Positions 15,346 through 37,537 of a DNA stretch of 64,000 bases are shown here, one piece after another; positions within the stretch are counted from its first letter, which is position 1, and every line of letters begins with the position of its first letter. A program made the position numbers and the translations under genes. The notes beneath the pieces are model-generated. The model worked only from the letters and a program-made list of their open reading frames with translations, was not told the origin of the DNA and did no database searches. The stretch comes from Candidatus Hydrogenedens sp. (GTDB taxonomy: Bacteria > Hydrogenedentota > Hydrogenedentia > Hydrogenedentales > Hydrogenedentaceae): positions 352,001 to 416,000 of the forward strand of contig JBMFRC010000001.1 of assembly GCA_049968235.1 (NCBI GenBank). Direction: 5' to 3'.

Positions 15346-16254
15346 ATGTTACAGATAGAAAAAATAGACATCCAAAAAATAAATGCAATAGCAGATATGT
15401 TGGAAACAACGACAAAGATTATAAACAGCGGATTGGATGAATCAGCAATAAGTTCTATGTATAATGAATCAACCCCATTATGGGTCCGAACAGTTAACAA
15501 TCAGTTCTGCGGGATAATTAATGATAGCAATGATATAAAACTTATTATTTCAACTGCGAAAAGAAAAGCAGAAGAAGGGGCGCCTATACTTGTTCAGCAG
15601 GGGATAGAAGGAAAAACCTGTTATCTAATCGGTTATCGTATGTCATACCATTTTTTTCCTGTAGAAATTTTTGGTGTAGAGTTTATTCCCGGAAATTATC
15701 GTATTCCTCGATTGTTATGGTTGCCTGTAGAATTTCCCGGAAAAGAATTAAAATCCATAACAGAAAAAGCCAAAGAAGTTGCCCGGAATCTTCCCCTTGG
15801 ATATTATGGTGTGTTATTTGAATTCGTTGTAAATGCACAGGGTGTATTTTTATCTTTTATTGACCCATTTTTCCAGCCGGATGAAGGAATGTGCCAGATA
15901 TGTAAGGAAGGAACGGGCATGGATTTAATGCGGATACATCAAACTGTTGAAAAACAGGGGATTCCTGATGTGGTTCCTACACGCGAATTAGGATGTGCTA
16001 TAGCGTGGATTATCCCGCATAGTGGAATTGTGCAAAGTATAAAGAACATTGAAAAGGTGCAAAGCACGGAGGGAATTAAGCAGGTGTATATACGAGTACA
16101 TGAGGGAGATTCGCTCACTCATATAACAGATATAGATTCCCGTAATAAAACAGGATATGTAATTGCTATTGGTCCGGATGCCTTTACCGCACGGAATAGG
16201 GCGTTATCTGCAGTTTCGCGAATACAAATCAATACGCGTAATCTTTTACCTTGA
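15346..16254 (+). CDS. ATP-grasp-like domain protein (hypothetical)
   Basis: 302 aa. PILVQQGIEGKTCYLIGY and GYYGVLFEFVVNAQGVFLSFIDPF resemble the central and C-terminal ATP-grasp motifs. No clear N-terminal pre-ATP-grasp domain. ATG start with AAGG upstream. Confidence 0.4.
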   Translation: MLQIEKIDIQKINAIADMLETTTKIINSGLDESAISSMYNESTPLWVRTVNNQFCGIINDSNDIKLIISTAKRKAEEGAPILVQQGIEGKTCYLIGYRMSYHFFPVEIFGVEFIPGNYRIPRLLWLPVEFPGKELKSITEKAKEVARNLPLGYYGVLFEFVVNAQGVFLSFIDPFFQPDEGMCQICKEGTGMDLMRIHQTVEKQGIPDVVPTRELGCAIAWIIPHSGIVQSIKNIEKVQSTEGIKQVYIRVHEGDSLTHITDIDSRNKTGYVIAIGPDAFTARNRALSAVSRIQINTRNLLP

Positions 16255-16312
16255 GAGATATTTTAAGTTGGTCCTGTCGGACAAATCAGGCGCGTTTGAC
16301 GCATCGGATACT

Positions 16313-17338
16313 TTATATTATACTTCCTGTCTTCTTGATAATATTCTCTGCCATACAAAGGAGTTCGACCCATTGAATATTATAATAGCGGGGATTATGG
16401 AAATCTGCATGGATACCATTTTGGATTTTAGTGACCATAGTCTGTATGGCTTCTTCTACGCTGACTTGAGGGCGAAATCCTAAAATCTGCTCGGTCTTCT
16501 TCGTGGAAACGCGGTAACTGCGTCCTCGTGTAGAACCATATTCTACTTCAATTCCGATATCCATTCCATTTTCACGAAATACTTTCCGTACCCAATGGGC
16601 TAATTCAAGTATCCGATAATTTTTATAAGATAGATTAAATATCTGATTTCCTACAATTTTTAGGTCCGCTTGCAGGCAAGCCACATAAGCACGGGCTATA
16701 TCGATTACATCAATCAAAGGTCGCCACATCTCTCCTCCACAATGAACAGTTAAGAAACCTTTATCAAATGCAGATTTTACAAAGGTATTAACGACAAGGT
16801 CATACCGCATACGGGGACTCCATCCATATACAGTTCCCTGTCGTAACAAGGTTGGATAGAAATCGGGTCCGGATAGTTTTAACAGTTCTTTTTCTGCCTG
16901 ATATTTGCTTACCGCATACGCAGCACGCGGTTCTACTGGGCTTTCCTCATCCTGCAAAACATCTTCCGCTAATAGTCCACGGTCATAAATAGAGCAACTG
17001 GATGCAAAGATAAACCGCTTTATCCCTCTACGTTTGCAATTTTCTCCTAAAATAGCCGTGGCTTCCGTGTTTAATTTTTTGTTGGCTTCCGGATTAAATT
17101 CTGCCATCGGGTCGTTACTCAATCCTGCCAGATGAATAACTCCGTCGACATCGTCCAACCATGCAGAATCAAATTGACATAAATCACCCTGAACACATTC
17201 AATTCGATTTTTTACTTCTTCCAGCCCTTCATCTCCGAATAGGAATTTATCAACAACACGGACTGCAAACCCATGATTTAACAATTCGCGAACAGTAACC
17301 GCACCAATATAGCCAGAACCACCTGTTACCAGTATCAT
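16313..17338 (-). CDS. NAD-dependent epimerase/dehydratase (extended SDR, nucleotide-sugar modifying)
   Basis: N-terminal Rossmann motif ILVTGGSGYIGAVTV. Catalytic YxxxK (YAVSKYQAEK). Confidence 0.8.
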   Translation of the reverse strand: MILVTGGSGYIGAVTVRELLNHGFAVRVVDKFLFGDEGLEEVKNRIECVQGDLCQFDSAWLDDVDGVIHLAGLSNDPMAEFNPEANKKLNTEATAILGENCKRRGIKRFIFASSCSIYDRGLLAEDVLQDEESPVEPRAAYAVSKYQAEKELLKLSGPDFYPTLLRQGTVYGWSPRMRYDLVVNTFVKSAFDKGFLTVHCGGEMWRPLIDVIDIARAYVACLQADLKIVGNQIFNLSYKNYRILELAHWVRKVFRENGMDIGIEVEYGSTRGRSYRVSTKKTEQILGFRPQVSVEEAIQTMVTKIQNGIHADFHNPRYYNIQWVELLCMAENIIKKTGSII

Positions 17339-17376
17339 CTTTTAACTCCTTCTTCTAATATTTATTTTTTCAATCA

Positions 17377-19284
17377 TTATGGCACAAACAGAGTTCGTAT
17401 TTCTTTTTTTGTTAATCCTGCATAATCTGTAACCACAAATGTAATTGTATGCGTTCCGGAGGGTAAATCTTCATCTTGTTCCCAACGTAGTGTTCCACGA
17501 GGTCCATCATATTCACTCAGTAGCCATTTCTGGTCGCAGAAAATTTCTGCCCGTGCTATACCACTTCCTATATCGGAAATAGAAGCAGATATAGGAGGTC
17601 GTTTTGTAAGTTGTTTTATGTCTTTATTAATATTAATGGAAATATTTGTGATTTGTGGAGGTTCATCATCTCTTATTAATGCGAAAGTGCCCCAATCAGA
17701 TACAGTGGCAATAACAGAGTCTCCCCTCTTTTGAGAATCTACTCTTGTCCATGAAGAACTTGTTTTACGGTATAAATGGATTCGCTCTTGCGGTTGGACA
17801 TTCTCTCGAATCTGTATTTTCATCTGTACCGCTTCTGCCATAGGCACATTATACGGTTCTATTTTCCATATATTTGAGGTAATTACCATGCCCTGAGGGA
17901 CTTTCTGTGCAGAGACAGGGGAGATGGAAAGCCAGAGGATTCCGTATGGTGTATTGGACGGTATATCTATCTGAAAATCATTCAATACAATGGGATTTAT
18001 TTTATCTTGTGCCTTAACTGCATATATAGTCTTTTCCCATGGAGGTATAGATGGATGGGACACTCGAAAAGTATATTTGCCTGATGCAGGAGGTTCCCAT
18101 GGAAGTTCGTAAATATTATTTGCCCGCTGGATAGGTTTTAGTAAGATAGACTCCTGTTCTGAGATGCATGTAACCTCAGGTATTTCCTTCGCAGATGTTT
18201 GTGCTAATAGAATTTCTAATACAAGGATAGACGGTAAATAGTGAATAGAAATATCTGTTTTTTCTATCTTCTTGTGTAAATCATTTGCAGGAACATCTGT
18301 GATGTATAGAGGAATCTGTGTTTTTTTCCTATCAAAGTCCTCTACTTCTATCTGGATATGCTCCTCATCTTTTATAGAAATCCAATCTTTTCGAGCCTGC
18401 TTGTAATTCTGCGATTGATTTCCCTGCCATTGCCACAATAACCAATAAATTGGATTTGAGATGTAAGGATAAAAAGCGACCACAGCATCCCGATAGGTAT
18501 TGTAATCAATGCGGTCTTGCTGAATAGTCGATAAGATGTTTTCGCTATTCTTTAATGAAATTCGGTAAGGTCCCAATTTACAATTGCCGGATTCGGGGTC
18601 GATGGTTGAAATACCAAATCCTATTGCACCCTGTGCATTAATAACGATAGGAAATGTTGTCTTTTCGTTAATAGGTATTTCTAGAGGAAGACAGCGACCA
18701 TTGATGGTTGCGTGAATACTTCCGGGGATAACAAGTAGAGATGTTATTTGAGGTTTATTACGGTCAATCCAGTGAAAACCATATTCCCATGGATTTAGAC
18801 ATGTAATTCCATCTTTTGTGCGAAGTTCAAAGTGTAAGTGTGGTGCTTTTGTTCCAGACTGACCTGTATATGCGATTATAGTCCCTTTTTTTACAATAAG
18901 TTCGTTGTCTTTGAGCATTAGGTCTACGGTGAAGGATTCTTTCTGATGTTGGACCTTTTGCAGATAAGACTGATATGGTTCTGCAAAAGAAAGTAGGTGT
19001 GCATAAATCCCCATAATTCCCGAATGAAATTGAATATATAACACGCGACCATAACCCCAGGGACCGCAACGCATCCTTGTTACATAGCCATCATCTATGG
19101 CATAGACCGGTGTACCAACAACAGCATGATAGTCCACGCCCATATGAAAACGACCATCTCGATGCTCGCCAAAGGAAGAAGTAGCCATCAAGTCTCCTTT
19201 CAAAGGGAGAACAAAAGATTCTTTGGCAGAAAGGGAATTGATTATTATAAAAATAAATGCAATAAATGGAGTTATGAACTTCAT
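17377..19284 (-). CDS. M23 family metallopeptidase (LytM-like) with a large C-terminal extension
   Basis: Signal peptide. M23 motifs HMGVDY (HxxxD), GQSGTKAPHLHFELR (HxH). The catalytic domain is N-terminal and is followed by ~450 aa of unknown beta-rich sequence. Confidence 0.75.
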   Translation of the reverse strand: MKFITPFIAFIFIIINSLSAKESFVLPLKGDLMATSSFGEHRDGRFHMGVDYHAVVGTPVYAIDDGYVTRMRCGPWGYGRVLYIQFHSGIMGIYAHLLSFAEPYQSYLQKVQHQKESFTVDLMLKDNELIVKKGTIIAYTGQSGTKAPHLHFELRTKDGITCLNPWEYGFHWIDRNKPQITSLLVIPGSIHATINGRCLPLEIPINEKTTFPIVINAQGAIGFGISTIDPESGNCKLGPYRISLKNSENILSTIQQDRIDYNTYRDAVVAFYPYISNPIYWLLWQWQGNQSQNYKQARKDWISIKDEEHIQIEVEDFDRKKTQIPLYITDVPANDLHKKIEKTDISIHYLPSILVLEILLAQTSAKEIPEVTCISEQESILLKPIQRANNIYELPWEPPASGKYTFRVSHPSIPPWEKTIYAVKAQDKINPIVLNDFQIDIPSNTPYGILWLSISPVSAQKVPQGMVITSNIWKIEPYNVPMAEAVQMKIQIRENVQPQERIHLYRKTSSSWTRVDSQKRGDSVIATVSDWGTFALIRDDEPPQITNISININKDIKQLTKRPPISASISDIGSGIARAEIFCDQKWLLSEYDGPRGTLRWEQDEDLPSGTHTITFVVTDYAGLTKKEIRTLFVP

Positions 19285-20435
19285 TACTTCTTATTTTTTT
19301 TTGGTGCTGTTGGCTTTGTTGTGGTTTGAGCAGGCACGGATTTCTTTACTGCTGGGGTTTTATCCTGACGGGATAATTTTTCTAAAATGGGGTCAAAGGC
19401 GAGGAATATTTTCACTTTTTCCGAATCATTTAGATAAGGTTTACAATATTCAAATATCTTTTCATCCGTTTTTTGTTCAATTAAAATATTTTTAATTTTT
19501 TCTTTAACCTGTTCAAAGTTAACCTTCTCTTCTGCTTCGCATTCTAACAATTTAAACAAATGCCATCCTAATGAACTTTTTATGACAGGGCTCAGGTCTC
19601 CCGGTTTCATGGCAGGTAGAACCTGTGTAAAAAACGGAGGCAATGCTTCTGTGGGTATCCATCCCATATCGCCTCCTTTCTGACGGTCCGGTGCTTCGGA
19701 AACAGAACGGGCAACCGCGTCAAAACTTTCTCCTGCCTTTATTCGTGCTAATGCTTTCTCTACTTCTTTTTGTGTTTCCTGCCATGCTTTTTCATCTGCC
19801 GTTTTTGCATTGGGCTTTGGTTGTCGAAATATTTGTTTTAAATGCACGCGTGAGGGTTTCATGAAAAGGTCCGGGTTACTTTCATAAAACTTTTTCGCTT
19901 CATCATCTGTTACGGTTATCTTATTCTCATTTACAAGGGCTTGTCTCATCTTTTTTAATATCAGATTTTTACGGGTTCTTTCGCGAAAAGATTCTATTGT
20001 CTCTCCTTTGGCTTTTAAGATGTCCTCCATACTGGGAGGGTTCTTTCCTGCCTTTTTTGTATCCTCCTGAATTTCCTTAATTTGTTCATCCACTGCTTTT
20101 TTTACCTCATCCTCAGTTACAGAATATTTTCGTTTTAGAGATTCCTGATACAAAATTTCGCGTTGGGCTAAATTGGTAATGCAACGGATGGCAATATGGA
20201 TACGGTCCTCATCTTTTACATCTTTTTGTCCCGTTCCCGCAACATATTCCAATAGTTCCAGATGATACCTCATTAAAAATTCTTCTTTCGATATGGGCGT
20301 ACCGAGAACCAAAGCCACAGGTCCATCCGGGACAGATTTCTCTACGATATCCATCCTAGACAGGTCAGGAGCCTGAGCAGGTAAATATGAAATCCAGAGG
20401 ATAGAGGTAAGCACAAAAAGTAATTTGCGAAACAT
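19284..20435 (-). CDS. SurA/PpiD-like periplasmic chaperone with parvulin-type PPIase domain
   Basis: Signal peptide. Parvulin motif ...GGDMGWIPTEALPPFFTQVLPAMKPGDLSPVIKSSLGWHLFKL. The stop overlaps the start of the M23 gene. Confidence 0.7.
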   Translation of the reverse strand: MFRKLLFVLTSILWISYLPAQAPDLSRMDIVEKSVPDGPVALVLGTPISKEEFLMRYHLELLEYVAGTGQKDVKDEDRIHIAIRCITNLAQREILYQESLKRKYSVTEDEVKKAVDEQIKEIQEDTKKAGKNPPSMEDILKAKGETIESFRERTRKNLILKKMRQALVNENKITVTDDEAKKFYESNPDLFMKPSRVHLKQIFRQPKPNAKTADEKAWQETQKEVEKALARIKAGESFDAVARSVSEAPDRQKGGDMGWIPTEALPPFFTQVLPAMKPGDLSPVIKSSLGWHLFKLLECEAEEKVNFEQVKEKIKNILIEQKTDEKIFEYCKPYLNDSEKVKIFLAFDPILEKLSRQDKTPAVKKSVPAQTTTKPTAPKKNKK

Positions 20436-20462: not shown

Positions 20463-20798
20463 TCAATCCTGTGTTTTATCCACTGGTTTTTCTGTTTCAG
20501 GGGTAATTTCAGTTTGTGTTGTTTTTATAATCAATAATCCGTAGTAAATCAAAATACCTGAGATGCCATAAGTAATAACAAAAATCAATGCACATAAAAT
20601 AACCATTGTGCCTATAGCAATGTAATATCCACTCAATTGCATCATCAAAAATACAAATAGGGCTATGAGAGTGAAAAACAATCCGGCAATAGTTGCAATA
20701 CGATTTGGCTCCAGATGAACAACAACCTGTTTTTTTGTATCCAGAAGGGGTCTTACCTCGGGATAATCCAAATTATGAAGGTTATTTATATTCTTCAT
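20463..20798 (-). CDS. Small two-TM membrane protein (hypothetical)
   Basis: 111 aa with two long hydrophobic helices. 27 nt upstream of the SurA-like gene. Confidence 0.35.
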   Translation of the reverse strand: MKNINNLHNLDYPEVRPLLDTKKQVVVHLEPNRIATIAGLFFTLIALFVFLMMQLSGYYIAIGTMVILCALIFVITYGISGILIYYGLLIIKTTQTEITPETEKPVDKTQD

Positions 20799-21130: not shown

Positions 21131-21820
21131 TCATTGGGATTTATATGATGATAAAAAATCCTGATAGGCTGTAAGGATTTGCTCCTCGTTCATAGGTGCA
21201 ATAATCATACGGACTGTAGTAGAAGCAGTCTGTCCTGTTTCCAATGTTTTACCAAACAGTGAGAAATACATGGAGTAATGTGTATTCCCTACTGGTGGAG
21301 TTAATATAGCAAAGCAGTTATCTTTGCGTGCCATCTGAACCACGGCAAGATTTGTCTCTTTATTGATGCGATAAATAATTGGCTCCTTAAAGGAGGGACG
21401 TATTGTCCAATCTACAGGATTAGGTGGAATAGTCCAGCGTCCATCACGAATAATCGAAATAGATTGTTCGTCCCTTGGGAAAGCCTGCCAATCTCCCGCA
21501 TCCACAGGAGTGGGAAGAAACTTATTGCCTTCCTCCGTTTGTGCATAAACGTAAGATTCTGGAAATTTATCGGTCAGGTAAGAGGAAAGAAATATTTCAA
21601 AATCCGGCAAATTTTGTTTTGCTTCAATTGAGATATGAAGGTCTAATGTGTAAGGATTTATCCATTGATATACAGAGGACAGGACAAAAGGATGTGCTTC
21701 GTCTGCTTCCCACTTTACTTTTATTGTTTTCTCATCTACCCATTCTGTTGAACTTTGCACACTCCGCATACTTTCTCCGAAGCGTTGGTTGGTTGCAAAT
21801 ACACGGTAAAAATTTAACAA
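21131..21820 (-). CDS. Hypothetical protein (229 aa), TTG start
   Basis: Long minus-strand ORF with no recognisable motif. The start codon at 21818-21820 is TTG. Confidence 0.4.
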   Translation of the reverse strand: MLNFYRVFATNQRFGESMRSVQSSTEWVDEKTIKVKWEADEAHPFVLSSVYQWINPYTLDLHISIEAKQNLPDFEIFLSSYLTDKFPESYVYAQTEEGNKFLPTPVDAGDWQAFPRDEQSISIIRDGRWTIPPNPVDWTIRPSFKEPIIYRINKETNLAVVQMARKDNCFAILTPPVGNTHYSMYFSLFGKTLETGQTASTTVRMIIAPMNEEQILTAYQDFLSSYKSQ

Positions 21821-21990
21821 GCCCGGTAGTGCAGACGGATTGGTAGAAATTTCAAGTTCCGGTGAAATAGAGGAGAACGGGACAAATCCGATAGACCTCC
21901 CTTCAAAACGGAATGTGCCTTTCAGTGCTCCTGTATCTATAAGATATTCACCTGGAGTTTTATCTGAAGCAATGAAATATGGTTTTTCTT

Positions 21991-23295
21991 CTATTGATTT
22001 TGTTGATGATATTTTTCTTTTCGTGCAGAGTTAAAAAGTTCTTTCATTTTGTAGTGAACATAGGGCTGTTTTGCCGCATCCTCTTTTCCTTTCGCGTGAG
22101 CGACCCATAATTCTAAATCTGTGGGACAATAGAGAACGCTGTGCAAGTTAACATTGACCATTGCCACTGCTTTGAGGATCTCTAATGCGATATTCTGGTC
22201 AATCTTGCCGTAATTCTCTTTTATTCGTGTAGCCATTCCTTTATAACGATGGTCATAGGAATTTGAACCATAGGGCATATTTGGTGCATTGGCACAGGTC
22301 TGTAAAGAGCGAATGGTTGGATCCATTGCTTCATCGGCACGCATAACGGCATTCTCAATGGGAATTGCATATTCGACAGTCTCGCGCGGGTCATTATCTG
22401 TAAATATTGCTACATGATGGGCACACGTTTCATAAACCAGGGCTCGGTTTTCATCTCCATCCGCAATCACATAGTTATAACCCACGGTATGCCGTGCTTC
22501 GAGAACAATTTCTGTTACCTGGTCCAAAGTAGATGCTTCTTCCAATATCTTGCGTAGAAGAAATTCAAGTGGGATACCATCAATGCGTCGGTCTTTATTC
22601 GTTGCTCCAATCTGTGCAATGGATACTTTGCGGTTATTCATGCCGGAGAGAACACCAATTGCACATGCATAACCGACAGAAATAAATGAATTCAATCCTT
22701 GTGGTTCATAACAGAAGGTAACCGCTGTATCCTGAATTCCTGCTTCCATAATCCAATCAAAATTTCTACCATGATACATCTTCCCATCAACAGTAGCTTT
22801 ACCCCACACGGCAAACGAACTACAACCCCGTTCTGTTATAACGGAAACAACATGAATACGACGCAAATCCTGAAGATTTACACCGGCACCATCAGCAATC
22901 CCCTCCAGTTCACGAGAATACCGTAATGGAATATGTGGCGAACATAATCTCCATGTAACATCCAATATCAACTTTGCTGCAAACTTTGGTAACCCTACTT
23001 CTTGCTTCGCCAGTTCTAATAATTCGTCAAATCGTGCAAGACTACGGTGAATAACATCTTTCAAGAGAACACCTCGTTGAAAACCCATCTCATACGGGGT
23101 CCCTTTCAAGTGAATAACCTTCGTCCCTTCAATTTCCTCCAAGAAAGCTTTTTGTATATCTACTGCTTCATGGGGACCGCGCGTAGGATAGAGCCAGAAG
23201 TAGAATCCAGCACCTAAAACCAGCACAACAAAAAGAATGGGAAGTATAAAACGAATTTTCTTTTTCATGGGAAATTCTCCAATAACAATTTTCAA
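21991..23295 (-). CDS. Peptidase C45 family Ntn-hydrolase (acyl-CoA:6-aminopenicillanic-acid acyltransferase-like), membrane anchored
   Basis: N-terminal TM/signal (the real start is probably MKKKIRF at 23268). GTPYEMGFQRG and the self-processing/nucleophile site ERG-CSSFAVWG are typical of C45. Confidence 0.6.
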   Translation of the reverse strand: MKIVIGEFPMKKKIRFILPILFVVLVLGAGFYFWLYPTRGPHEAVDIQKAFLEEIEGTKVIHLKGTPYEMGFQRGVLLKDVIHRSLARFDELLELAKQEVGLPKFAAKLILDVTWRLCSPHIPLRYSRELEGIADGAGVNLQDLRRIHVVSVITERGCSSFAVWGKATVDGKMYHGRNFDWIMEAGIQDTAVTFCYEPQGLNSFISVGYACAIGVLSGMNNRKVSIAQIGATNKDRRIDGIPLEFLLRKILEEASTLDQVTEIVLEARHTVGYNYVIADGDENRALVYETCAHHVAIFTDNDPRETVEYAIPIENAVMRADEAMDPTIRSLQTCANAPNMPYGSNSYDHRYKGMATRIKENYGKIDQNIALEILKAVAMVNVNLHSVLYCPTDLELWVAHAKGKEDAAKQPYVHYKMKELFNSARKEKYHQQNQ

Positions 23296-23421: not shown

Positions 23422-26400
23422 TTATACATCCTTAATGATAGAAATAGGGATTGTTAGATTGTTAGCAATATCGGGAATATCATTTCTATATGTAAAAAGG
23501 ATTATCTGTTGTCCTTCTCCCAATGCTTTCAATGTTTCCAGAGATTGAATCAATTGGGGATAGTCATAAGACACAAAAGGGTCATCTAACAATAACGGAA
23601 TTGGTTCTTTGAGAAAATGAGGAATTTTCATAAGGGCGACACGCATAGCAAGATATGCCTGTTCCTGAACAGAGGGATTTGAAGATAATTCTTCCAGAGG
23701 TATGGGGTTCTCTGTTTGTGCAGGAATAACTTTCAATGTCAGGTCCTGCTCTACAAGCACACCTGTATATTTGTACTTCGTTAAATGTATCAGCAAACGA
23801 CTGACTTCATTTTGTAAAGGCAATGCAATTTTATGATACCGATATGTGGATAATTGCTGTAATACCGATATTGCTGATAATACACTCTCCTGTTCGTATC
23901 GAAGTATTCTCCATTGAGTTTCATAATAATATTTTTCTTCAGCAATTTCATTTAACGGTCGCAATTTGTTTGTCAATGTTTCCAACTCTGATTGTAGAAT
24001 CTGTATATCCTTTTGTATTTGTTCTACTTCGTTTTCTGTTTGCTCAATAAGTAGTTGCAATTGTTCTTCATCTTCGGCGGGGACTGATGGGACAAAATCT
24101 TGTGTTTGTTTTTCCAGTTCCTCTATTGTGCCATCATTCAGCAATTGTTGAAGTTGCAGTTCGGTTTGTTTAATTCGTGAAAAGATAGCCTGTGCTTCTT
24201 CGGCAAGGGCATATTTGTTTTTCCATTCGGAGATACTGCTTACTCCTGCCAGTTCTAATATCTCCTGAATCTGTTTCTGGTTTTGAGATAGTTCCTCATC
24301 CACTTTTTGCAGTTGTTGATTTAAATCCAATCGCTTTTTCCGAAGCTCGGATACCTTTGTTTTTAGCCCACAGTACATTTCTTCTGCACGATAATATGAA
24401 CGGAAAGTATCCTGTGTTAAAGTTTCCCCTGGTTGAAGCAGTCCGGATTGAACTAAGTCATGTTCTATCCGGCTAAGTATCTCTTTTTGAATTTTATTGT
24501 AAATATCCTTTGTATATTCTTCTTTTTTCGTTATAGTGTATGTTAATTGTTGATATTGGTTCCGGAGGTCCCAGAGCCTGCGGTGGTACATTCTTGCTTT
24601 TTCCTGCAATTCAAATACCTTTCGCCGATTTTGCTCTATTTTATCCTTATCTTCCAGAGATAGACCTGCTTGTTCAAAAAGATTTTGTATCTCTTGATAA
24701 AGGTCGTAGGTTCGGGTCTGGTTAATCGTAAATAGTTCCTCTGCTTTACGAACCTGTGTAGATAAATCTCCCTCGTTTTTTAACCAGGCACAGTATTCGT
24801 CATAAAGCCCCTGCAATTCGCGCACATGCTGTAAATTGGCTTTATTAAGTAGTGCTGTTATTGGATGCTTATCAATATATTCGAAGGTAACTATTTTCTG
24901 AATTTTTTCTTTCAATTGCTTCAGGAAAACATCGATTTCTTTCAGAGTTCGCTTATTATTGATATAAGAACTCACAAAATATAAAAAAGCCAATCCTACT
25001 GCACTGGCAAACCATAGAGATTCCTTTTTATGCATTGTTATAAACAGATAAATGAGTAAAATATCCAGCAAAAAACAAAGCGTCCCTAATACCAGGTCCA
25101 CAGGTTGTCGGGAACGAATTTGTAGTTTTAATACCTCTGCTTCTTCCAATTGTCTTTCTAATTCTTGCTGTTCTTCTTCCGGTTTATCTTTATATTTCAA
25201 ATAATCATCTACAAGCCCTGCAAAGTCATTTATATCATCAAATAATTCCCGATACGGTTGCGTTTGTTGTTGAACACGGGTATATTCTTTTCTCAGTTCA
25301 TTAAGTTGCGATTCGCTTTTATGTGTTTCCTTCAAAGAACTTTTATACATATCAATGGCAAAATCGGTTTTGGAGTAGAACATATCATCTTTTTGTATTA
25401 CCTCTGGAAGTTCCGAAACAATTTTTTCAACTTCCTGAATATGTTCGTTTACCTTCTCTCGTTGATTGTGTAGTTCTTTCAACACCTCCTCATTACTGTG
25501 AATATGTTTCAAATATTCCTCATATTTATCTTGATAATCCTTAATATAATCAATAGGGATAAAGGTAGAATGACGCAGTTCTAACTCAAGTTCATTGATT
25601 TCCCCAGAGATGTTCTCAATCTCATTTTGCAATTTCTGCTTTTGCATTTCCGCATGATTGATAGCCATCTCCGTTTGAATAACATATACATTCTGGTCAA
25701 CTGGAAAATTTCTAAAATTGGAGTATGAAAAGGAACGTCTAGTCAGTTCATTTAACTTGTCTCGTAAGGCTTTTGCATCGTTCTTTTTTCTCCAGAGCGT
25801 ATATTGACGGGCATATTGTAATTTATCTTGCAGTTCCTTATATTTCTGTTGAAGACTACTCAGTTTCTCCTTATGTTGTTTCAGAAATAATTTCTTCTCG
25901 CATATTCTTTCAAAACTTTCCTTTACCTGCTCATATTCCTCTGATAACCTTTCTATTTGTTCCGATATCAGGTTATAGGGGCGTTTATAGGTACGTTCTG
26001 TTCCGATGGATTGCAAATATTCCTGAAAATCGGTAATTATGGTATTTACAGATTGTTCCGTTGTCCCTGTATCTATCAAACACTGAAGATGTTCCTTTAC
26101 TCTGTTCCCGTGGGTAAAGGAATTCAAACTGTCTATTGTCTTCTGTGAAATTACAGACACTCCGGAGAACATTTCACGAGTCAAATCCAGATGTTCATTT
26201 ATAAAAGCAGGTTCTCCATTTGGATATACAGGAACTGTATCTGTTATATCATTTGCATCCATCCCTTCATATATTCTTAATGATGGTTCAGGTCCAAATA
26301 CTCGATGAAGATGTATCAGTTTCCCCGTATTCAGGCGATAAACAATATTTCCCCGATAATCCGAAGTATACCATGGTGTATATTTATAATAATTTTCAGA

Positions 26401-26580
26401 AAAGGATGCATTTTTCTTTTTGGAAGTTTTTTGCCCAAATAACATATCCAGCATAAACTGGAATAATGTATTTTTCCCATTCTCATCTCTGACAAAAATT
26501 ATCTGGAACCCCTTCTCAAATTCAAGGGGAATCTTTTGTAGTTTCCCGAAACCATAGATATGTCCCTTTATAAATTCCAT
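23422..26580 (-). CDS. SbcC/Rad50-like SMC-type coiled-coil protein of the SbcE/YhaN type, with an internal TM hairpin and degenerate ATPase motifs
   Basis: 1052 aa. N-terminus IYGFGKL...IIFVRDENGKNTLFQFMLDMLFG sits at the P-loop position. Long heptad-rich coiled-coil arms. A hydrophobic hairpin (LVLGTLCFLLDILLIYLFI / LWFASAVGLAFLYFV) lies mid-protein. C-terminal LSSNP (signature position), LLLDDPF (Walker B) and ILFTY (H-loop position). Confidence 0.65.
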   Translation of the reverse strand: MEFIKGHIYGFGKLQKIPLEFEKGFQIIFVRDENGKNTLFQFMLDMLFGQKTSKKKNASFSENYYKYTPWYTSDYRGNIVYRLNTGKLIHLHRVFGPEPSLRIYEGMDANDITDTVPVYPNGEPAFINEHLDLTREMFSGVSVISQKTIDSLNSFTHGNRVKEHLQCLIDTGTTEQSVNTIITDFQEYLQSIGTERTYKRPYNLISEQIERLSEEYEQVKESFERICEKKLFLKQHKEKLSSLQQKYKELQDKLQYARQYTLWRKKNDAKALRDKLNELTRRSFSYSNFRNFPVDQNVYVIQTEMAINHAEMQKQKLQNEIENISGEINELELELRHSTFIPIDYIKDYQDKYEEYLKHIHSNEEVLKELHNQREKVNEHIQEVEKIVSELPEVIQKDDMFYSKTDFAIDMYKSSLKETHKSESQLNELRKEYTRVQQQTQPYRELFDDINDFAGLVDDYLKYKDKPEEEQQELERQLEEAEVLKLQIRSRQPVDLVLGTLCFLLDILLIYLFITMHKKESLWFASAVGLAFLYFVSSYINNKRTLKEIDVFLKQLKEKIQKIVTFEYIDKHPITALLNKANLQHVRELQGLYDEYCAWLKNEGDLSTQVRKAEELFTINQTRTYDLYQEIQNLFEQAGLSLEDKDKIEQNRRKVFELQEKARMYHRRLWDLRNQYQQLTYTITKKEEYTKDIYNKIQKEILSRIEHDLVQSGLLQPGETLTQDTFRSYYRAEEMYCGLKTKVSELRKKRLDLNQQLQKVDEELSQNQKQIQEILELAGVSSISEWKNKYALAEEAQAIFSRIKQTELQLQQLLNDGTIEELEKQTQDFVPSVPAEDEEQLQLLIEQTENEVEQIQKDIQILQSELETLTNKLRPLNEIAEEKYYYETQWRILRYEQESVLSAISVLQQLSTYRYHKIALPLQNEVSRLLIHLTKYKYTGVLVEQDLTLKVIPAQTENPIPLEELSSNPSVQEQAYLAMRVALMKIPHFLKEPIPLLLDDPFVSYDYPQLIQSLETLKALGEGQQIILFTYRNDIPDIANNLTIPISIIKDV

Positions 26581-27740
26581 TCCGGGGGAACCTCACATGT
26601 TTCAACGGTAGGAATTTTTAGATTTGCTCCTCCAGCAATTCTTGCGGTTAAATGTCGGACTCGTTTTGCAATACTGACAGCGGAGGTATTCGGTGCACAT
26701 TTTTGTTGTTCCGTTACCTGCTTAAAAAATTCAGATAGAACGGTAATCTCTCGCAAATCTTCTGCATTTTCAAATCCTTCTATTTCTCCATCAAAACTCC
26801 ATGTAATAAATAGATTTTCTTCCTGAATAGATATCATTGTTTCCGGGATGCCATTTAGAAGGGAAGGAGAAATTGTTCCACTGAAACGGAGATGAACAAC
26901 ACAGGGTTTTTGCAAATTTGTCAATTCATTTCGTAACTTCGTGTGAAGTCCATCTTCATTTGTAAACAAAGACATATCTATATTGATAAGAGCATAAAAA
27001 TTTTTCTGTAAAGACATATGTTCTACATGGGAAACTTTCCATTGATTATCATCCGATTGAAAGCGAATACCTAAAACCCCAAAAGGAGGAGTATCATCCA
27101 TACTTATAGGGTCGGGAATACCACAACAACACGCCGTCAATTGCGAAGTATTGTAAAATTGTTTGAAACTGTGTCCTTTCCCTACCCCGATATATGAGAT
27201 AACATCCGGGACCTTCTCAAACCATCTTGACAATTCCCTTTTATCGTTAAACATAGGCAATTCATAAGATAGAAGAATATGATTCCTGCCATCATAGCCA
27301 GTCGGTAAATTAAGTTCCGCAAAATCCCCTACCTTCCTATTATCTCCTGCTATTGCATAAACAACAATCGGGGTCTTATTCCCTTCCCACCTGTTTGTTG
27401 TTTCGGAATTCATTACTATTACATTTTCGGGAAAAGTCTCTAATATGTAGGGAGAATATTTTGTGATAGGGTCTGATTCGCCGGGAATAATAATGACTGG
27501 AACAGGTTTAATTGCTTCACATCGCTCAAACAGGAATTGAAGGGTTTGTTCCGTTACATATTCTGCATCCAGCAAATTACCGGTTATGAATAAGGCATCT
27601 GCTTTATACTCAAATACTTTACTGACAATTGCATCGAGTAATTCCCTCTGTCTTCTTCTTCGTTCTTGACCATAGTGTAGGTTTAAGGAGGAAAAAAAGG
27701 GCTTGTCTAAGTATACATTTGCGGTATGTAAGATGAACAT
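26568..27740 (-). CDS. SbcD/Mre11-like calcineurin-fold phosphoesterase homolog (SbcF/YhaO-like) with substituted metal ligands
   Basis: MFILHTANVYLD aligns position-for-position to SbcD MRILHTSDWHLG. ADALFITGNLLD aligns to the GDxxD motif. IIIPGESD aligns to GNHD. Overlaps the SbcE-like gene by 13 nt. Confidence 0.6.
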   Translation of the reverse strand: MFILHTANVYLDKPFFSSLNLHYGQERRRRQRELLDAIVSKVFEYKADALFITGNLLDAEYVTEQTLQFLFERCEAIKPVPVIIIPGESDPITKYSPYILETFPENVIVMNSETTNRWEGNKTPIVVYAIAGDNRKVGDFAELNLPTGYDGRNHILLSYELPMFNDKRELSRWFEKVPDVISYIGVGKGHSFKQFYNTSQLTACCCGIPDPISMDDTPPFGVLGIRFQSDDNQWKVSHVEHMSLQKNFYALINIDMSLFTNEDGLHTKLRNELTNLQKPCVVHLRFSGTISPSLLNGIPETMISIQEENLFITWSFDGEIEGFENAEDLREITVLSEFFKQVTEQQKCAPNTSAVSIAKRVRHLTARIAGGANLKIPTVETCEVPPEWNL

Positions 27741-27765
27741 TTTCGTTTAACCTGTAACAGTTTGA

Positions 27766-28716
27766 TTAAGAATATATTATATCAATTTGCGGTTCCTGCT
27801 TTGCTATGGCATCAGTAAAACCCCTATATCGCCAATATCGGAATACTCGGCGATACATTCGGAGAAGTAATTTAGAATCTTCTGGAAGTTTTAAGCAAAA
27901 ACGGTGGTAGTAAGGAATAAGCAGGGCATTGATAATTCGTGTAGTATAAGGAAAATAAAGTTTATAATTAACGACGATATGATAGTCATTAGGAAACAAT
28001 CGCAGGTAACAGCCCATTGAATAACCCCGACGGTAATGATATCTGCACATATCCAGATATGAACTTCCTTTCCAAAGCCAACAAAGAGCCTGATTGTCAA
28101 TATGAAGTTTACAACCTACTTGCGAGAGCCTTTTTACCAATTCCACTTCTGCGAATTCCGGGAAATAAAATGATTTGTTAAATGTTCCACTTTGAAGAAT
28201 AAGGTCACGAGGGATACTCATGTTATAGAGAGAGAAATGGGAAGGAGTTATTTGTGTAATTTCCTCCATTGAAGGTGGTTCATCCTCTGGCAAGAACCAG
28301 GGTGTTATGCTTTTTGAAGAGAGTCGCGGATGCAAAAGTAACGCGCCTCCGATACAGGCTTTCCCCTCATATGCGTATTGGAGCTGGACATGCCTTTGGA
28401 TCCAACTATTACTGGGCAATACCTCCGGTTGACTGCACAATACCCACTTTCCTTTCGCCTCGTGCAATGCTAAGTCCCATGCTTGTATCATTGACTCTCC
28501 CCCATGTGGAATATAACGAACAATCAACGGAGACCCTTTTGACAAAGAAGCAACTGTCTTTCGCGTTTCTTCTGAGGAATTCGTTTCAACAATAATCCAC
28601 TCAAATTGTGCTAAAGGATAATCCTGATGTTCCAGATGAAAAAACCATGGGGATAAACACCACGACAAATTATTTCCTACTAACAGCACGCTTGCATGGA
28701 TTTCATTCGTTGACAT
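27766..28716 (-). CDS. GT-A fold (GT2-like) glycosyltransferase homolog lacking DXD and other acidic motifs
   Basis: ASVLLVGNN..FEWIIVETNSSEE..VRYIPHGGESMIQAWDLALHEAKGKWVLCSQPEVLP follows the GT2 N-terminal pattern (IIPTYN..EIIVVDDGSTD..xRYIxxxNxGxxxARNxGxxxAxGEYIxFLDxDD). The DD and DXD positions are ET and SQPE. 25 nt upstream of the SbcF-like gene. Confidence 0.4.
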   Translation of the reverse strand: MSTNEIHASVLLVGNNLSWCLSPWFFHLEHQDYPLAQFEWIIVETNSSEETRKTVASLSKGSPLIVRYIPHGGESMIQAWDLALHEAKGKWVLCSQPEVLPSNSWIQRHVQLQYAYEGKACIGGALLLHPRLSSKSITPWFLPEDEPPSMEEITQITPSHFSLYNMSIPRDLILQSGTFNKSFYFPEFAEVELVKRLSQVGCKLHIDNQALCWLWKGSSYLDMCRYHYRRGYSMGCYLRLFPNDYHIVVNYKLYFPYTTRIINALLIPYYHRFCLKLPEDSKLLLRMYRRVFRYWRYRGFTDAIAKQEPQIDIIYS

Positions 28717-28825
28717 TCCGATACTTTCTTCCCTTTTTGTTATTATAAAATATTAACATGATAATATACTGAAAAGGGAATTTTTATTTCTATATATAGT
28801 TTTCCAGAGATAAGGCTCATCATAT

Positions 28826-33405: not shown

Positions 33406-34158
33406 TTAGGTATTCCACTGAAACTGTTCTCCTAAATATACTTTTCGAACGCGCTCATCAGCAGATACCTCTTCAGGGGTTCCGGTGCATATAACTTGCC
33501 CTTCGCTAATGATATAGGCACGGTCTGTTATCGATAAGGTATCCCGCACATTATGGTCGGTAATCAAAATACCGATACCTCGCTCTTTCAATTCCTTCAC
33601 CATAATTTGTAATTCGCTAATAGCAATTGGGTCTATTCCCGCAAAGGGCTCGTCTAAAAGAAATATTTTAGGCTCTGTAATTAATGCGCGAGCAATTTCT
33701 GTTTTTCTACGCTCTCCACCTGAAAGGGTATAGGCATATTGGTTTGATAAATGTTCTATATTCATCTCTTTCAGAAGTTGGTGAGCTTTCTCTTTATGTT
33801 CTGCACGACTACCGGGTAAAAATTCCAATATTGCTAATAGATTTTGTTCCACAGTTAAATTACGGAATACAGATGGTTCTTGAGCCAGATATGCAATCCC
33901 TGCACGGGCTCTACGATACATCGGGAAACGGGTAATATCCTGCCCCATAAAAAATACCTTTCCATCATCCGGCTTAAATAGCCCCACTACCATGTTAAAT
34001 GTTGTTGTTTTTCCAGCACCATTGGGTCCCAATAATCCTACTATCTCACCTTTATTTAAACATAGTGAAACATTGCGGACAACTACGCGTTTCCGAAATG
34101 ATTTGACTAACCCTTGAGTTTCCAATAACTTTTCAGAAGACATATACCTCTCCCTCAT
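33406..34158 (-). CDS. lptB: LPS export ABC transporter ATP-binding protein LptB
   Basis: Walker [10 protein letters not shown], signature [15 protein letters not shown], Walker [14 protein letters not shown]-loop ITDHN. Downstream of lptC and lptA homologs. Confidence 0.85.
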
Positions 34159-35060
34159 AGAGGTTTTAGCACATCAGGGAAGGCACATTGAAGCAGTAAC
34201 CGGTTTAGTCGCACCTGTTCTTCTGCTGTTAATGTTCCCTTATTTAAGAACTCTTTTGCCGTTTCCGGTAAAGTTGTCTTTGCCCATGCTTCCTTATTAT
34301 AGAAATCCGGTTTCCGTAATAATCTATTTATCTGTTTGACCAAATCCTGTTTTCTCTTTAGAATCAAATCATTAGGAGTGGACAAAAATTGACTTCTCGC
34401 ATCCCCATCAAATTTACTTAACAAGTATTTGCCGGGAGTCATTTCGCTGGATTGCCCCTGTCTTTTTAATTCTGCAATAAAACCATTCCAATCTATAACA
34501 TCAGTTTCCGTAAGAAGAGACAACCCTGTCTCTATACCACCTTCAGAACCAACTCCTCCCTGTAGCGGTATCATATCCGCTTGTAGATTTTCGATGTCAA
34601 TCGTATTGTTCTTAAAATCCAGAACAATTTTGGAACCTTTTAATCCCTGTGCTTTGGGACTATCTAACATAGGATTCCCTGTGAATTCTACCATTTCCTT
34701 TTTAAAGTCCCAGACTGCTTTCTCTGCTGTTAATTTACCTTCAGGATGTTCAAGATATACCTTGCCTTCCATACGAATCAGTACCGGTGAATTTCGACCT
34801 TCTTCCCATTCAAAAGTCATTCTATCCGCTTTGATAGGCATATTAGGGGTATTGGGTTCTTGAGATAGTAAAACGATACTTACACCTCCGCTCATCTCAC
34901 GTATACTCATTCCTTGATTTAGTGTCCCTTTCAATTTCCCAACTTTCTCAATTTTCATGGAGGAATATTTACCTAAACTTATATTCTCCTGAGCATATAC
35001 TTTTACATATATAGCGATAAACAATAATAAGATGAATAATACAGGCATTAGTTTTTTCAT
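34155..35060 (-). CDS. lptA: LptA-like (OstA N-terminal beta-jellyroll) periplasmic protein with ~120-aa C-terminal extension
   Basis: Signal peptide. Position between the lptC-like and lptB genes with overlapping junctions. Repetitive beta-strand pattern for the first ~180 aa, then an extra helical tail. Confidence 0.5.
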
Positions 35061-35641
35061 GTTGTATTCCTCAATATCAACGGGACCTGTCCGGATACTT
35101 CTTCCAGTTCAAACTCTTTAGTGTCAGGATAAATAATTAAATTTTCCGCATCCAGATGTAAATCTGTGCCCTGCACTGCAATTTTCCCATGTGTCCAGAT
35201 GCGGGCAGGTTCTGTTTCTGTTCGATTACTCCATTCAATCCCATCCGTATTAAATAAAATATTATCCATTTGAGCCTCTACATTTCCCACAAGAGAGGCT
35301 TTATTCATTTTTTCAAAAACTCCTTCTCTTGCAGAAATTTTGATATGTTCTTTACCGGATTGAATATCATAAATGACTGCATGTACATCTTCAACTTTCC
35401 ATGTATTTTCATCAATGACAGCAAACTTTTCCGCATGCAACCATAAGGTAGGTTTGCGTGCTTCACCTATGGTAGGACGTGGGTCATGATGATACAAATC
35501 CACAGACGAGACATTCATATCATCTATGGATTGCTTTTGAGGAGGAGTTGTCTCCGCAGTAGGTAGGGTTGTAGAGTTTTTTTTGCCACAAGAAAATAGT
35601 AGAAGTGTGCAAATTGTAAATACCGTCATCCATCTCATCAC
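35057..35641 (-). CDS. lptC: LptC-like membrane-anchored protein
   Basis: 194 aa. N-terminal anchor MMRWMTVFTICTLLLFSCG. Size and position immediately upstream of lptA-lptB. Overlaps the coaX stop. Confidence 0.45.
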   Translation of the reverse strand: MMRWMTVFTICTLLLFSCGKKNSTTLPTAETTPPQKQSIDDMNVSSVDLYHHDPRPTIGEARKPTLWLHAEKFAVIDENTWKVEDVHAVIYDIQSGKEHIKISAREGVFEKMNKASLVGNVEAQMDNILFNTDGIEWSNRTETEPARIWTHGKIAVQGTDLHLDAENLIIYPDTKEFELEEVSGQVPLILRNTT

Positions 35642-36414
35642 GCAGTGCCTCGGGTATTTTTTTCATAAATAATCTTTAACCCTTTTAATGTCAACAAGGG
35701 GTCAACCACATCAATATTTTTTGCCAGTTGGGCAATGGTTTCAGCAAGTCCACCTGTTGCAAGAACACGGGCATGAGTTCCCATCTCCAGACGTATCCGT
35801 TCAATCAATCCATTTACCAAATCCGCATATCCATAGGTAAGACCTGAACGGATATTGTTTACTGTATCCCGACCTATAACAGCGGGAGGGACACTAATCT
35901 CTACTCGTGGTAACTTAGCACAGTGTTCAAATAAAGCATCTGCAGATAATTGAATGCCGGGGACAATTACTCCACCTAACCATTCCGATTTGGCAGTTAC
36001 GACATCAAAGGTTGTAGCTGTGCCGAAATCTACGATAATTAAGGGTCCTCCATATTCTTCGACCCCTGCTACAGCATTTACAATGCGGTCAGCACCTACC
36101 TCTTTCGGGTTATCACATTGGAGAACAATACCTGTGCGTATCCCCGGCTCAACCATTACAGGTTCAAAACCAAAGGCTCGTTCACATAGATGATATAAAG
36201 CGGGATTGATATCCGGAACCACACTGGAAATACAACATCCCCGAATCTGCGAAGGCTTAATATTTGCAGAATAAAATAACATTGTAATCAACAAATAAAA
36301 CTCGTCCCCAGTTCGATAATTAGATGTTACGACCCTCCAATGATTTATCAACTTGTCCTTATGATAAATACCCAGCACAATATTGGAATTTCCAACATCA
36401 ATAACCAATAACAT
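35638..36414 (-). CDS. coaX: Type III pantothenate kinase
   Basis: MLLVIDVGNSNIVLGIY... (DxGN[TS] motif), the central GTATTFDVV motif and overall length of 258 aa. Confidence 0.85.
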   Translation of the reverse strand: MLLVIDVGNSNIVLGIYHKDKLINHWRVVTSNYRTGDEFYLLITMLFYSANIKPSQIRGCCISSVVPDINPALYHLCERAFGFEPVMVEPGIRTGIVLQCDNPKEVGADRIVNAVAGVEEYGGPLIIVDFGTATTFDVVTAKSEWLGGVIVPGIQLSADALFEHCAKLPRVEISVPPAVIGRDTVNNIRSGLTYGYADLVNGLIERIRLEMGTHARVLATGGLAETIAQLAKNIDVVDPLLTLKGLKIIYEKNTRGTA

Positions 36415-36476
36415 AGTTCTACCTTCCTACCCATCGGGCTTTAAATAATGGGAAAGTATCTACCTTTTTTATTGTA

Positions 36477-37475: not shown

Positions 37476-37537
37476 AAATAATTGAGTTTTTCGACATATC
37501 TATCTATGGATTTTCCTGTATATGAACGGAATATATG

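Follow-up and report, generated by a model that had tools for sequence, protein, structure and literature searches.

Gene layout in the window

The window analysed here is a stretch of 64,000 nucleotides (nt) of the uncultured bacterium Candidatus Hydrogenedens sp. (phylum Hydrogenedentota; assembly GCA_049968235.1, contig JBMFRC010000001.1, positions 352,001 to 416,000 of the forward strand). Three consecutive minus-strand open reading frames (ORFs) encode a protein similar to family 2 glycosyltransferases (GT2-like, 316 amino acids, aa), a homolog of the Mre11/SbcD nucleases (390 aa) and a homolog of the Rad50/SbcC ATPases (1052 aa), and a divergent gene next to the first of them encodes a polytopic membrane protein of the YfhO family (760 aa; Table 1). 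An initial annotation, made from the sequence of the window, had regarded the three minus-strand genes as one module of catalytically dead enzymes.

Re-reading the ORFs confirmed the layout given there: 25 nt separate the 316-aa and 390-aa genes, the 390-aa and 1052-aa genes overlap by 13 nt, and none of the three ORFs contains an internal stop. The 390-aa protein is 100% identical to the NCBI protein ACP5UA_01465 from a metagenome-assembled genome (MAG). Judging from the spacing kept across orthologous loci, the three genes are probably co-transcribed. The scan of the window found no terminator-like site within the gaps between them, such sites being about twice as frequent in the window as expected (14 versus 7.1 ± 2.6) and all weak. 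The AT-rich region of 109 nt between the divergent genes is presumed, from the layout, to be the promoter region of both transcription units; promoter-like sites in the window did not exceed the shuffled expectation (40 versus 37 ± 7). The GC content of the window is uniform (about 35-41%), and tRNA and Rfam scans of its 64 kb found no element.

Table 1. Features of the four-gene block. Positions are counted from the first nucleotide of the window, and residues are numbered within each protein.
Feature	Position	Strand	Basis or comparison
GT2-like (GT-A fold) protein, 316 aa, DD and DXD eroded, no transmembrane segment	27766..28716	-	Pfam, AlphaFold2 model
E44-T45 in place of the GT2 DD of DDGS	28582..28587	-	L015 VVDDGSTD and L046 VVDAGSSD versus window IIVETNSS
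S95-Q96-P97-E98 in place of DXD	28423..28434	-	L015 LCDDELV and L046 LADDELA versus window LCSQPEVL
Putative pseudo-nuclease, YhaO/SbcF (Mre11/SbcD) type, 390 aa	26568..27740	-	Foldseek, Pfam, motif alignment, dN/dS
Motif I remnant N8-V-Y10 (canonical D-x-H)	27711..27719	-	alignment; N8 invariant in 12 orthologues
Motif II remnant G54-N55 (canonical GD)	27576..27581	-	alignment; N55 invariant in 12 orthologues
Motif III remnant G87-E-S-D90 (canonical GNHD)	27471..27482	-	positions 88-89 vary: ES, DT, NS, SS, TA, NA
Putative pseudo-ATPase, YhaN/SbcE (Rad50/SbcC-like, AAA_27) type, 1052 aa	23422..26580	-	Pfam, family profile, alignments
Walker A remnant V30-RDENGKN-T38 (family G[PL]NExGK[ST]T; GPNEQGKTT)	26467..26493	-	alignment
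Signature remnant L965-SSNPSV (family LSxGTxDQ)	23668..23688	-	alignment; window reads LSSNPSVQEQ
Transmembrane hairpin at the apex of the coiled coil (aa 496-514 and 522-540), where Rad50 has a zinc hook	24961..25095	-	hydropathy
YfhO-like polytopic membrane protein (GT-C family), 760 aa	28826..31108	+	divergent; Pfam YfhO
Divergent intergenic region, AT-rich, 109 nt	28717..28825	.	presumed promoter region of both transcription units; layout only

Motif erosion in the three proteins

Three lines of evidence place the 390-aa protein among the Mre11/SbcD phosphoesterases and locate what it has lost (loci and sequences of our surveys are designated L and P, respectively). First, it scores 16.6 bits against the Pfam Metallophos profile, below the gathering cut-off of 21.5, when an intact orthologue scores 51.3. 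Second, its AlphaFold2 model (predicted local distance difference test, pLDDT, 70) has the phosphoesterase fold followed by the capping domain, and the top 35 matches of this model in a Foldseek search of the PDB are all Mre11/SbcD structures (best match 3av0_A, E 4.7e-11; TM-scores 0.5-0.66). Third, its motifs were read by hmmalign against intact orthologues, and against Thermotoga maritima Mre11 through the intact orthologue L002, which matches the latter motif for motif. Where L002 reads IHTADVHLD, IAGDVFE, PGNHDP, VAVGH and LGHFH, the window protein reads LHTANVYLD, ITGNLLD, PGESDP, LLSY and VGKGH, that is, DxH became NxY in motif I, GD became GN in motif II, GNHD became GESD in motif III, His became Tyr in motif IV and GHxH became GKGH in motif V. 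Of the eight metal-site positions in the alignment, seven carry a substitution, so that the canonical set of five motifs is absent, and the losses NxY, GN and GESD that the initial annotation had read by eye are borne out. At motifs III and V, the orthologues of this protein differ in what has replaced the canonical residues, and all five motifs are canonical in L002 and in all Clostridia loci.

The 1052-aa protein is built of an N-terminal half of an ATPase head, a coiled coil, a transmembrane hairpin, a second coiled coil and the C-terminal half of the head; it thus combines a split ABC-type head, a long coiled coil and a hydrophobic centre, and no CxxC hook was found in it. It scores 17.9 bits against the Pfam profile AAA_27, below the gathering cut-off of 22 (52.9, 34.1 and 37.3 bits for L002, L004 and L019, respectively). 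The profile of its family matches the C-lobe of Pyrococcus furiosus Rad50 (4nck_A, E 2e-5), and the signature, the Walker B motif and the H-loop region of Rad50 align with the C-lobe of the family. The P-loop, previously described as shortened, has the length usual in the family and is substituted instead, from GPNEQGKTT to VRDENGKNT. Related sequences of the same subclade read VKEEQDRNS, FRDDNEKNT and others, with Arg for the Walker A Lys, and Glu or Asp for the Gly, in close relatives of the window protein. The loss of the signature, read as LSSNP in the initial annotation, stands in the family alignment, and no segment of the head is less conserved in the subclade than this motif. Neither GxxxxGK[ST] nor LSxGT is present in the window protein; both are canonical in every other lineage covered by the profile alignment, most short Clostridia homologues being unreadable at Walker A. 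Two further substitutions had been counted as lesions. The Walker B 'DD' is not one, because it is normal in nearly all intact members of the family, including members with a perfect Walker A. As to the H-loop, a change from His to Tyr had been assumed; the position aligned with the Rad50 His is Cys ('FTCR') across the family, never His, so that the missing His is no lesion either, and the Tyr is indeed specific to the subclade of the window. Of the four ATPase lesions counted in the initial annotation, two are thus typical of the family. All three minus-strand proteins are weakly recognised by Pfam and NCBIfam.

The membrane anchor of the 1052-aa protein, which the initial annotation had correctly called, lies in the middle of the protein (aa 496-540) and not at a terminus, with Kyte-Doolittle peaks of 2.65 and 1.67. 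It is worth noting that every ATPase of the family that was scanned has a mid-protein hydrophobic region of the transmembrane type, including those of the Acidobacteriota and Clostridia loci L017-L039; in most of them it forms two separate segments, and in L002, L014, L016 and L019 a single or overlapping one. Neither the anchor nor the lack of a zinc hook is an innovation of this locus; both are ancestral to the whole YhaN family. The length of the ATPase is 1046-1059 aa across the Hydrogenedentota (L001-L016, L042 and L043), down to 21% identity, the Acidobacteriota proteins measuring 946-952 aa and those of Clostridia about 520-860 aa. The near-fixed length in Hydrogenedentota suggests a constraint on the length of the coiled coil.

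The 316-aa protein is recognised as a GT2-like protein by Pfam (Glycos_transf_2, 25.7 bits, above the gathering cut-off of 23.3) and by the AlphaFold2 model, whose N-terminal domain (pLDDT 72-88) has the GT-A fold and matches K4CP, TarS, TarP and SpsA; a search of the PDB with its sequence gave no match even at E 10. Its hydropathy reaches at most 1.07 and no stretch of 19 residues reaches 1.6, so that no transmembrane segment is predicted. In comparison with L015 and L046, the nucleotide-binding DD and the metal-binding DXD are eroded, in agreement with the replacements (DD to ET, DXD to SQPE) that had been reported, and one acid is left at each site, E44 and E98. Position 44 is Glu or Asp in most orthologues (Ser in P0143 and P0144), S95 is invariant, and position 98 is Glu, Asp or Asn. 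With one acid kept at each eroded motif, the inactivity of this protein is less certain than the initial annotation had assumed.

Within the known Mre11-Rad50 world, the pair is closest to SbcE/SbcF, for which a role in double-strand break repair and competence has been reported; this role should not be assumed for the window pair. Similarly to SbcE/SbcF and to the AAA_27/Metallophos pairs of Bacillota, the nuclease-like gene comes first and overlaps the SMC-like gene that follows, the latter encoding a head, a coiled coil and a hydrophobic central domain, with no CxxC and with a Walker B 'DD', and the homology is detectable by hidden Markov models (HMMs). Bacillus subtilis SbcE (YhaN) is an SMC-like protein that has no CxxC hook and possesses a unique, hydrophobic and insoluble central domain, and its nuclease partner is SbcF (YhaO) (PMC2811018). 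Because a region of the transmembrane type occurs in every family member examined, this central domain is probably a membrane anchor. The window pair differs from SbcE/SbcF in having neither the metal ligands of the nuclease nor Walker A and the signature, and from the Bacillota loci examined in lying within a block with GT2-like and YfhO-like genes. The window ATPase is also longer than the Clostridia homologues found here (1052 versus about 520-860 aa), B. subtilis SbcE being likened to it by its published description. The pair further resembles Mre11-Rad50/SbcCD in the nuclease-plus-capping fold of the 390-aa protein and in the alignment of the ATPase C-lobe, and differs from it in the hairpin that replaces the zinc hook, in the H-loop His that the whole YhaN-like family lacks, and in the loss of the metal site and the ATP-binding motifs in the window. 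We read the 390-aa and 1052-aa genes as what appears to be a disabled descendant of a YhaO/YhaN (SbcF/SbcE)-type Mre11-Rad50-like complex.

A reuse of this kind has a precedent in Lamassu, which has been proposed to derive from SbcCD, its LmuC subunit descending from the C-terminal domain of SbcD (PMC12663957). Similarly to the window pair, Lamassu puts a machine of the Mre11-Rad50 type to another use, its Mre11-derived subunit having ceased to cut DNA (PMC12663957), and a weak LmuB match (49 bits) was returned by PADLOC. We nevertheless regard it as very unlikely that the locus is an SbcCD-derived defence system of the Lamassu type with the GT2-like protein as its effector. PADLOC matched neither of the other two proteins and found no LmuA-like effector, so that the combination of LmuA, LmuB and LmuC is not present. 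Lamassu keeps its ATPase sensor and its LmuA effector, whereas the window ATPase is, judging from its motifs, disabled, and a sensor devoid of Walker A and signature could not work in the Lamassu manner. In addition, the block behaves like vertically inherited core genes, the identity ranks of the four genes agreeing with one another, the composition being uniform and the neighbours being housekeeping and envelope genes.

Distribution, order of loss and selection

A word-indexed search for full-length orthologues of each of the three proteins found them only in Hydrogenedentes assemblies, where the three genes keep together. With the ATPase alignment as query, the GTDB species genomes yielded 34 loci from Hydrogenedentota, Acidobacteriota and Clostridia, which brought the set to 39 loci, all ORFs of which were searched by HMM. 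In 37 of them a Metallophos gene is followed by an AAA_27-type gene with a mid-protein hydrophobic region, the two exceptions being incomplete loci, and the Metallophos-type gene lies directly upstream of the ATPase gene and usually overlaps it. The pair also occurs in nearly all metagenome loci long enough to hold both genes. As a background, a metagenome scan seeded with six sequences gave 80 loci, mostly gut Bacillota pairs with intact motifs, and the metagenome loci contributed 80 YhaO-like sequences to the alignment, 64 of which show the full canonical pattern at the eight metal-site positions.

YhaO-like proteins with degenerate motifs occur at other loci as well. A profile search of the library, run exhaustively, returned 2589 relatives. 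For the best 150 representatives of YhaO-like clusters, all eight metal-site positions are canonical in 90 (in 111 when one substitution is tolerated), and about 30 keep at most four of these positions, a share that is probably biased upward by the degenerate query profile. The degenerate patterns recur (P0151-P0230, L015 and L046), including D-L-N-P, with intermediates such as DHDN[CRK]H, and one such representative, P0175, is annotated as Hydrogenedentes. On these alignments, the death of the nuclease appears to be a recurrent event. Neither a disabled YhaO/YhaN complex nor its link with GT2 and YfhO is described in the literature that we searched, an absence of evidence only, given our incomplete coverage; the view of the initial annotation that such a degenerate version is not known to be described holds to that extent, the degenerate YhaO-like proteins themselves occurring beyond this locus.

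The combinations of intact and degenerate subunits reveal an order. Both subunits are intact in Clostridia, in Acidobacteriota and in the Hydrogenedentota loci L002, L012, L014, L016, L042 and L043. A partly or fully degenerate nuclease is combined with an intact ATPase in L001, L004, L009, L010 and L015, the nuclease of L046 being degenerate likewise. Both subunits are degenerate in the window, L006, L007 and L008, and in P0015-P0018 and P0020. Among the loci examined, the death of the ATPase is confined to this subclade of the window. Because relatives combine a dead nuclease with an intact ATPase, the nuclease died before the ATPase. The loss was thus stepwise and specific to lineages, with the nuclease going first and the ATPase later in one subclade, and not the consistent loss across one module that the initial annotation had proposed. 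In a neighbour-joining tree of the nuclease-like proteins, computed with the motif columns left out, the clade of the window is monophyletic and entirely degenerate, and a second cluster of degenerate and intermediate sequences surrounds L015.

The pair is maintained by selection. First, full-length, stop-free orthologues occur in at least 10 independent assemblies (46-84% identity), and identical substitutions recur in independent MAGs; orthologues with intact motifs also exist, and they are not accompanied by signs of decay here. Second, the ratio of nonsynonymous to synonymous substitution rates (dN/dS; Nei-Gojobori, window versus Ca. H. terephthalaticus, L006, dS 0.73-1.08) is 0.07 for the GT2-like gene, 0.15 for the nuclease-like gene, 0.13 for the ATPase-like gene and 0.15 for the YfhO-like gene. 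Other comparable pairs give 0.06-0.21, and the most distant one, the nuclease-like genes of the window and L004, gives 0.29 with a dS close to saturation. Third, we compared the mean pairwise identity of segments of the ATPase-like protein between the subclade of the window and its sister clade with an intact ATPase. The identity is 0.60 versus 1.00 for Walker A, 0.41 versus 1.00 for the signature and 0.70 versus 1.00 for the Walker B and D-loop segment, when the head overall stands at 0.69-0.70 versus 0.71-0.76 and the coiled coils at 0.67 versus 0.61-0.63. The special constraint on the nucleotide-binding motifs is gone, and elsewhere the protein has remained under undiminished constraint. 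Purifying selection together with a relaxation limited to the motifs therefore argues for a retained, non-catalytic role and against random decay. The same claim in the initial annotation is upheld for the nuclease-like/ATPase-like pair; for the GT2-like gene, its premise of inactivity is less certain. We hold it very probable that the two proteins are a disabled but functional pseudoenzyme pair.

Plain pseudogenisation, in which the three genes would be functionless and decaying, is scarcely credible in this light. Catalytic motifs have indeed been lost in all three genes, and the gene directly downstream, of the C45 family, is frameshifted in this genome; yet the orthologues remain full-length and stop-free with dN/dS of 0.07-0.15, their length, overlap and spacing are conserved, and outside the motifs their conservation equals that of the ATPase-intact sister clade.

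It is harder to dismiss, though still improbable, that at least one of the three proteins remains an enzyme through non-canonical residues, as a single-acid or metal-independent GT-A enzyme, as a phosphoesterase with an altered metal site acting on a substrate other than DNA, or as a switch that binds ATP and does not hydrolyse it. Consistent with this possibility are the strong constraint on the GT2-like protein (the dN/dS given above, 84 invariant columns across 13 orthologues, many of them polar, position 44 being acidic and position 98 acidic or Asn), the invariance of D58, D90 and H5 and near invariance of H154 among the nuclease-like orthologues, and the retention of G35-K36-x-T38 in the window ATPase. 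A new active site would, however, be expected to be conserved, whereas seven of the eight Mre11 metal-site positions are replaced, with variable replacements at motifs III and V, and the Walker A remnant varies within the subclade, as does the signature. Because the motif remnants are not conserved, residual non-canonical enzymology seems unlikely for the pair; for the GT2-like protein it is plausible.

The glycosyltransferase-like gene and the possible role of the block

The order GT2-like, nuclease-like, ATPase-like is found in the Hydrogenedens clade, L015 and L012, the GT2-like gene being separated from the next by about 24-29, 12 and 175 nt, respectively. A GT2 gene also lies upstream in L046, at 133 nt, the ATPase not being on that contig. 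The 13-nt overlap between the nuclease-like and ATPase-like genes is kept in L006-L010, and the spacing of about 25 nt is conserved as well. The divergent YfhO-like gene is present in L046 and in all Hydrogenedens loci, and it adjoins the GT2-like gene in the window, L004-L010, L040, L041 and L046. When the window is compared with L004 and L006-L010, synteny is confined to the four-gene block, both flanks being rearranged, and the identity ranks agree across all four genes. In this phylum, the four genes make up an ancient block that selection has retained.

The YfhO-like protein (Pfam YfhO, 38.2 bits versus a cut-off of 28.5) shows no erosion, its Pfam coverage and its invariant N-terminal 'PHWNPYQLCGQP' motif being alike in all lineages. 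The pairing of a GT2 gene with a YfhO gene is known to be functional in CsbB/YfhO (PMC5836110). Similarly to CsbB/YfhO, the window GT2-like gene adjoins a gene of the YfhO family of GT-C type; unlike the GtrB/CsbB-like GT2 proteins, its product is devoid of C-terminal transmembrane helices and of the DD and DXD motifs. In contrast to CsbB/YfhO-type systems, envelope genes of the Gram-negative type (LptA-like and SurA-like) lie near the window block. The divergent GT2-like/YfhO-like pairing persists even where the GT2-like gene is split from the Mre11/Rad50-like pair: in the MAG GCA_026415215.1 the GT2-like gene lies beside YfhO on contig 7 (L040) and the pair on contig 22 (L001), and L041 likewise holds a YfhO-GT2 arrangement with no pair. 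We see the GT2-like gene primarily as the partner of the YfhO-like gene. The initial annotation had made it a partner in the module of the pair, and it does precede the pair in several lineages; its most faithful partner is nevertheless the YfhO-like gene, and the co-occurrence of the three genes, kept across the Hydrogenedens clade, is broken in GCA_026415215.1.

These separations raise the possibility, which we consider tentative, that the GT2-like gene does not belong with the pair at all and forms a two-gene glycosylation unit with the YfhO-like gene, set beside an independent disabled pair by inherited gene order. The CsbB/YfhO precedent fits this account, as does the absence of any GT2 match near the pair in the Clostridia and Acidobacteriota loci examined. 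Three observations speak against it: three Hydrogenedentota lineages far apart from one another, namely the Hydrogenedens clade, that of L015 and L046, and L012, have GT2 directly before the pair; GT2 and the pair are 12-29 nt apart in the Hydrogenedens clade and L015, though this distance is 175 nt for L012 and 133 nt for L046; and the four-gene block survives as a unit despite the rearranged flanks.

Some neighbouring genes deserve mention. Directly downstream of the ATPase-like gene, a gene for an acyltransferase/hydrolase of the C45 family (21131-23295, minus strand) is broken at about position 22012 by a 1-nt deletion after the run AAAGAAAAA. Residues 1-425 are encoded by the ORF 21991..23295 and residues 417-712 by the ORF 21131..21820 in another frame, and in L006 and L007 the orthologue is one uninterrupted ORF (712 and 739 aa, respectively). 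The break is either a real frameshift or a consensus error of the MAG, and it contrasts with the three intact 'dead' genes upstream. The C-terminal domain of this gene (21131-21820) has no Pfam or NCBIfam match. An ORF of 111 aa at 20463-20798 contains two hydrophobic stretches. Envelope genes at 15346-20435 and 33406-39763 encode a SurA-like peptidyl-prolyl isomerase, an M23 peptidase with an immunoglobulin domain, an NAD-dependent sugar epimerase, a class A penicillin-binding protein (PBP1A) and an LptA-like protein paired with an LptB-like ABC ATPase. At L002/L003 (10843-14669), near an intact YhaO/YhaN-like pair, a second Metallophos gene (302 aa) lies beside a large gene; a canonical SbcCD was suspected there and rejected, the large gene being TamB.

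From the evidence above, the explanation that we prefer, with a probability of roughly 0.6, is that a disabled YhaO/YhaN descendant acts as a non-catalytic, membrane-tethered coiled-coil complex with an envelope-linked block. The transmembrane hairpin at the apex of the long antiparallel coiled coil would hold the Rad50-like subunit in the cytoplasmic membrane. In the Hydrogenedens lineage, the metal-binding residues of the Mre11-like subunit went first; in the subclade of the window, Walker A and the signature of the Rad50-like subunit went later, leaving a pseudo-Rad50 that would be incapable of canonical ATP binding, hydrolysis or ATP-driven head engagement. The fold, the length, the coiled coil, the membrane hairpin and the translational coupling of the pair have been kept under purifying selection. 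The two proteins may still assemble in the Mre11-Rad50 manner, with a pseudo-Mre11 dimer bridging two heads, to give a constitutive, non-enzymatic, membrane-tethered complex of cytoplasmic coiled coils that could serve as a scaffold, a tether or a spacer. The pair is probably in one operon with the gene of the soluble, motif-eroded GT2-like protein, itself head-to-head with the YfhO-like GT-C gene, and the scaffold would possibly serve this GT2-like/YfhO-like pair in envelope glycosylation. The four-gene block is the sole synteny that has been kept, and a role in envelope glycosylation is therefore favoured over one in DNA repair; taken by itself, this link remains doubtful. More specifically, the YhaO/YhaN complex of Hydrogenedentota might be no DNA-repair machine, and instead a membrane-tethered coiled-coil device of the cytoplasm, of fixed length (about 1050 aa), working with the GT2/YfhO pair on the cell envelope, and in the Hydrogenedens subclade a non-catalytic scaffold or ruler made of a pseudo-Mre11 dimer and pseudo-Rad50 arms, a proposal that we put forward as speculation with the odds well against it.

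Several points weigh against the preferred reading. First, E44 and E98 are kept in the GT2-like protein, whose dN/dS is the lowest of the three (0.07), which would fit a still-active enzyme. Second, G35-K36 are kept in the window ATPase, which may retain some nucleotide binding in this species. Third, the formation of the complex and its inactivity are predictions from sequence. Fourth, the envelope link may be one of inherited gene order rather than of function, because the GT2-like gene separates from the pair, as in GCA_026415215.1 and L041, and because several intact pairs (L002, L014, L016, L042 and L043) have no GT2 upstream. Fifth, the data come from MAGs, and the dN/dS values are approximate since dS is near saturation.

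What normally defines a machine of the Mre11-Rad50 type is its nuclease and ATPase cycle. If the proposal of a non-catalytic complex with an envelope role is true, this would be the first structural complex derived from Mre11-Rad50 with an envelope function. The block formed with the GT2-like and YfhO-like genes would provide an unexpected and testable link between an SMC-like complex and envelope glycosylation. For annotation, our findings call for caution, as public records label such genes 'AAA family ATPase', 'glycosyltransferase' and 'SbcD/Mre11'. The Hydrogenedentota also offer ready-made separation-of-function variants for the poorly understood, membrane-anchored SbcEF/YhaNO branch. They form a natural series within one phylum, from both subunits intact, through a dead nuclease, to both subunits dead, all under purifying selection, which indicates that the architecture is useful without either activity.

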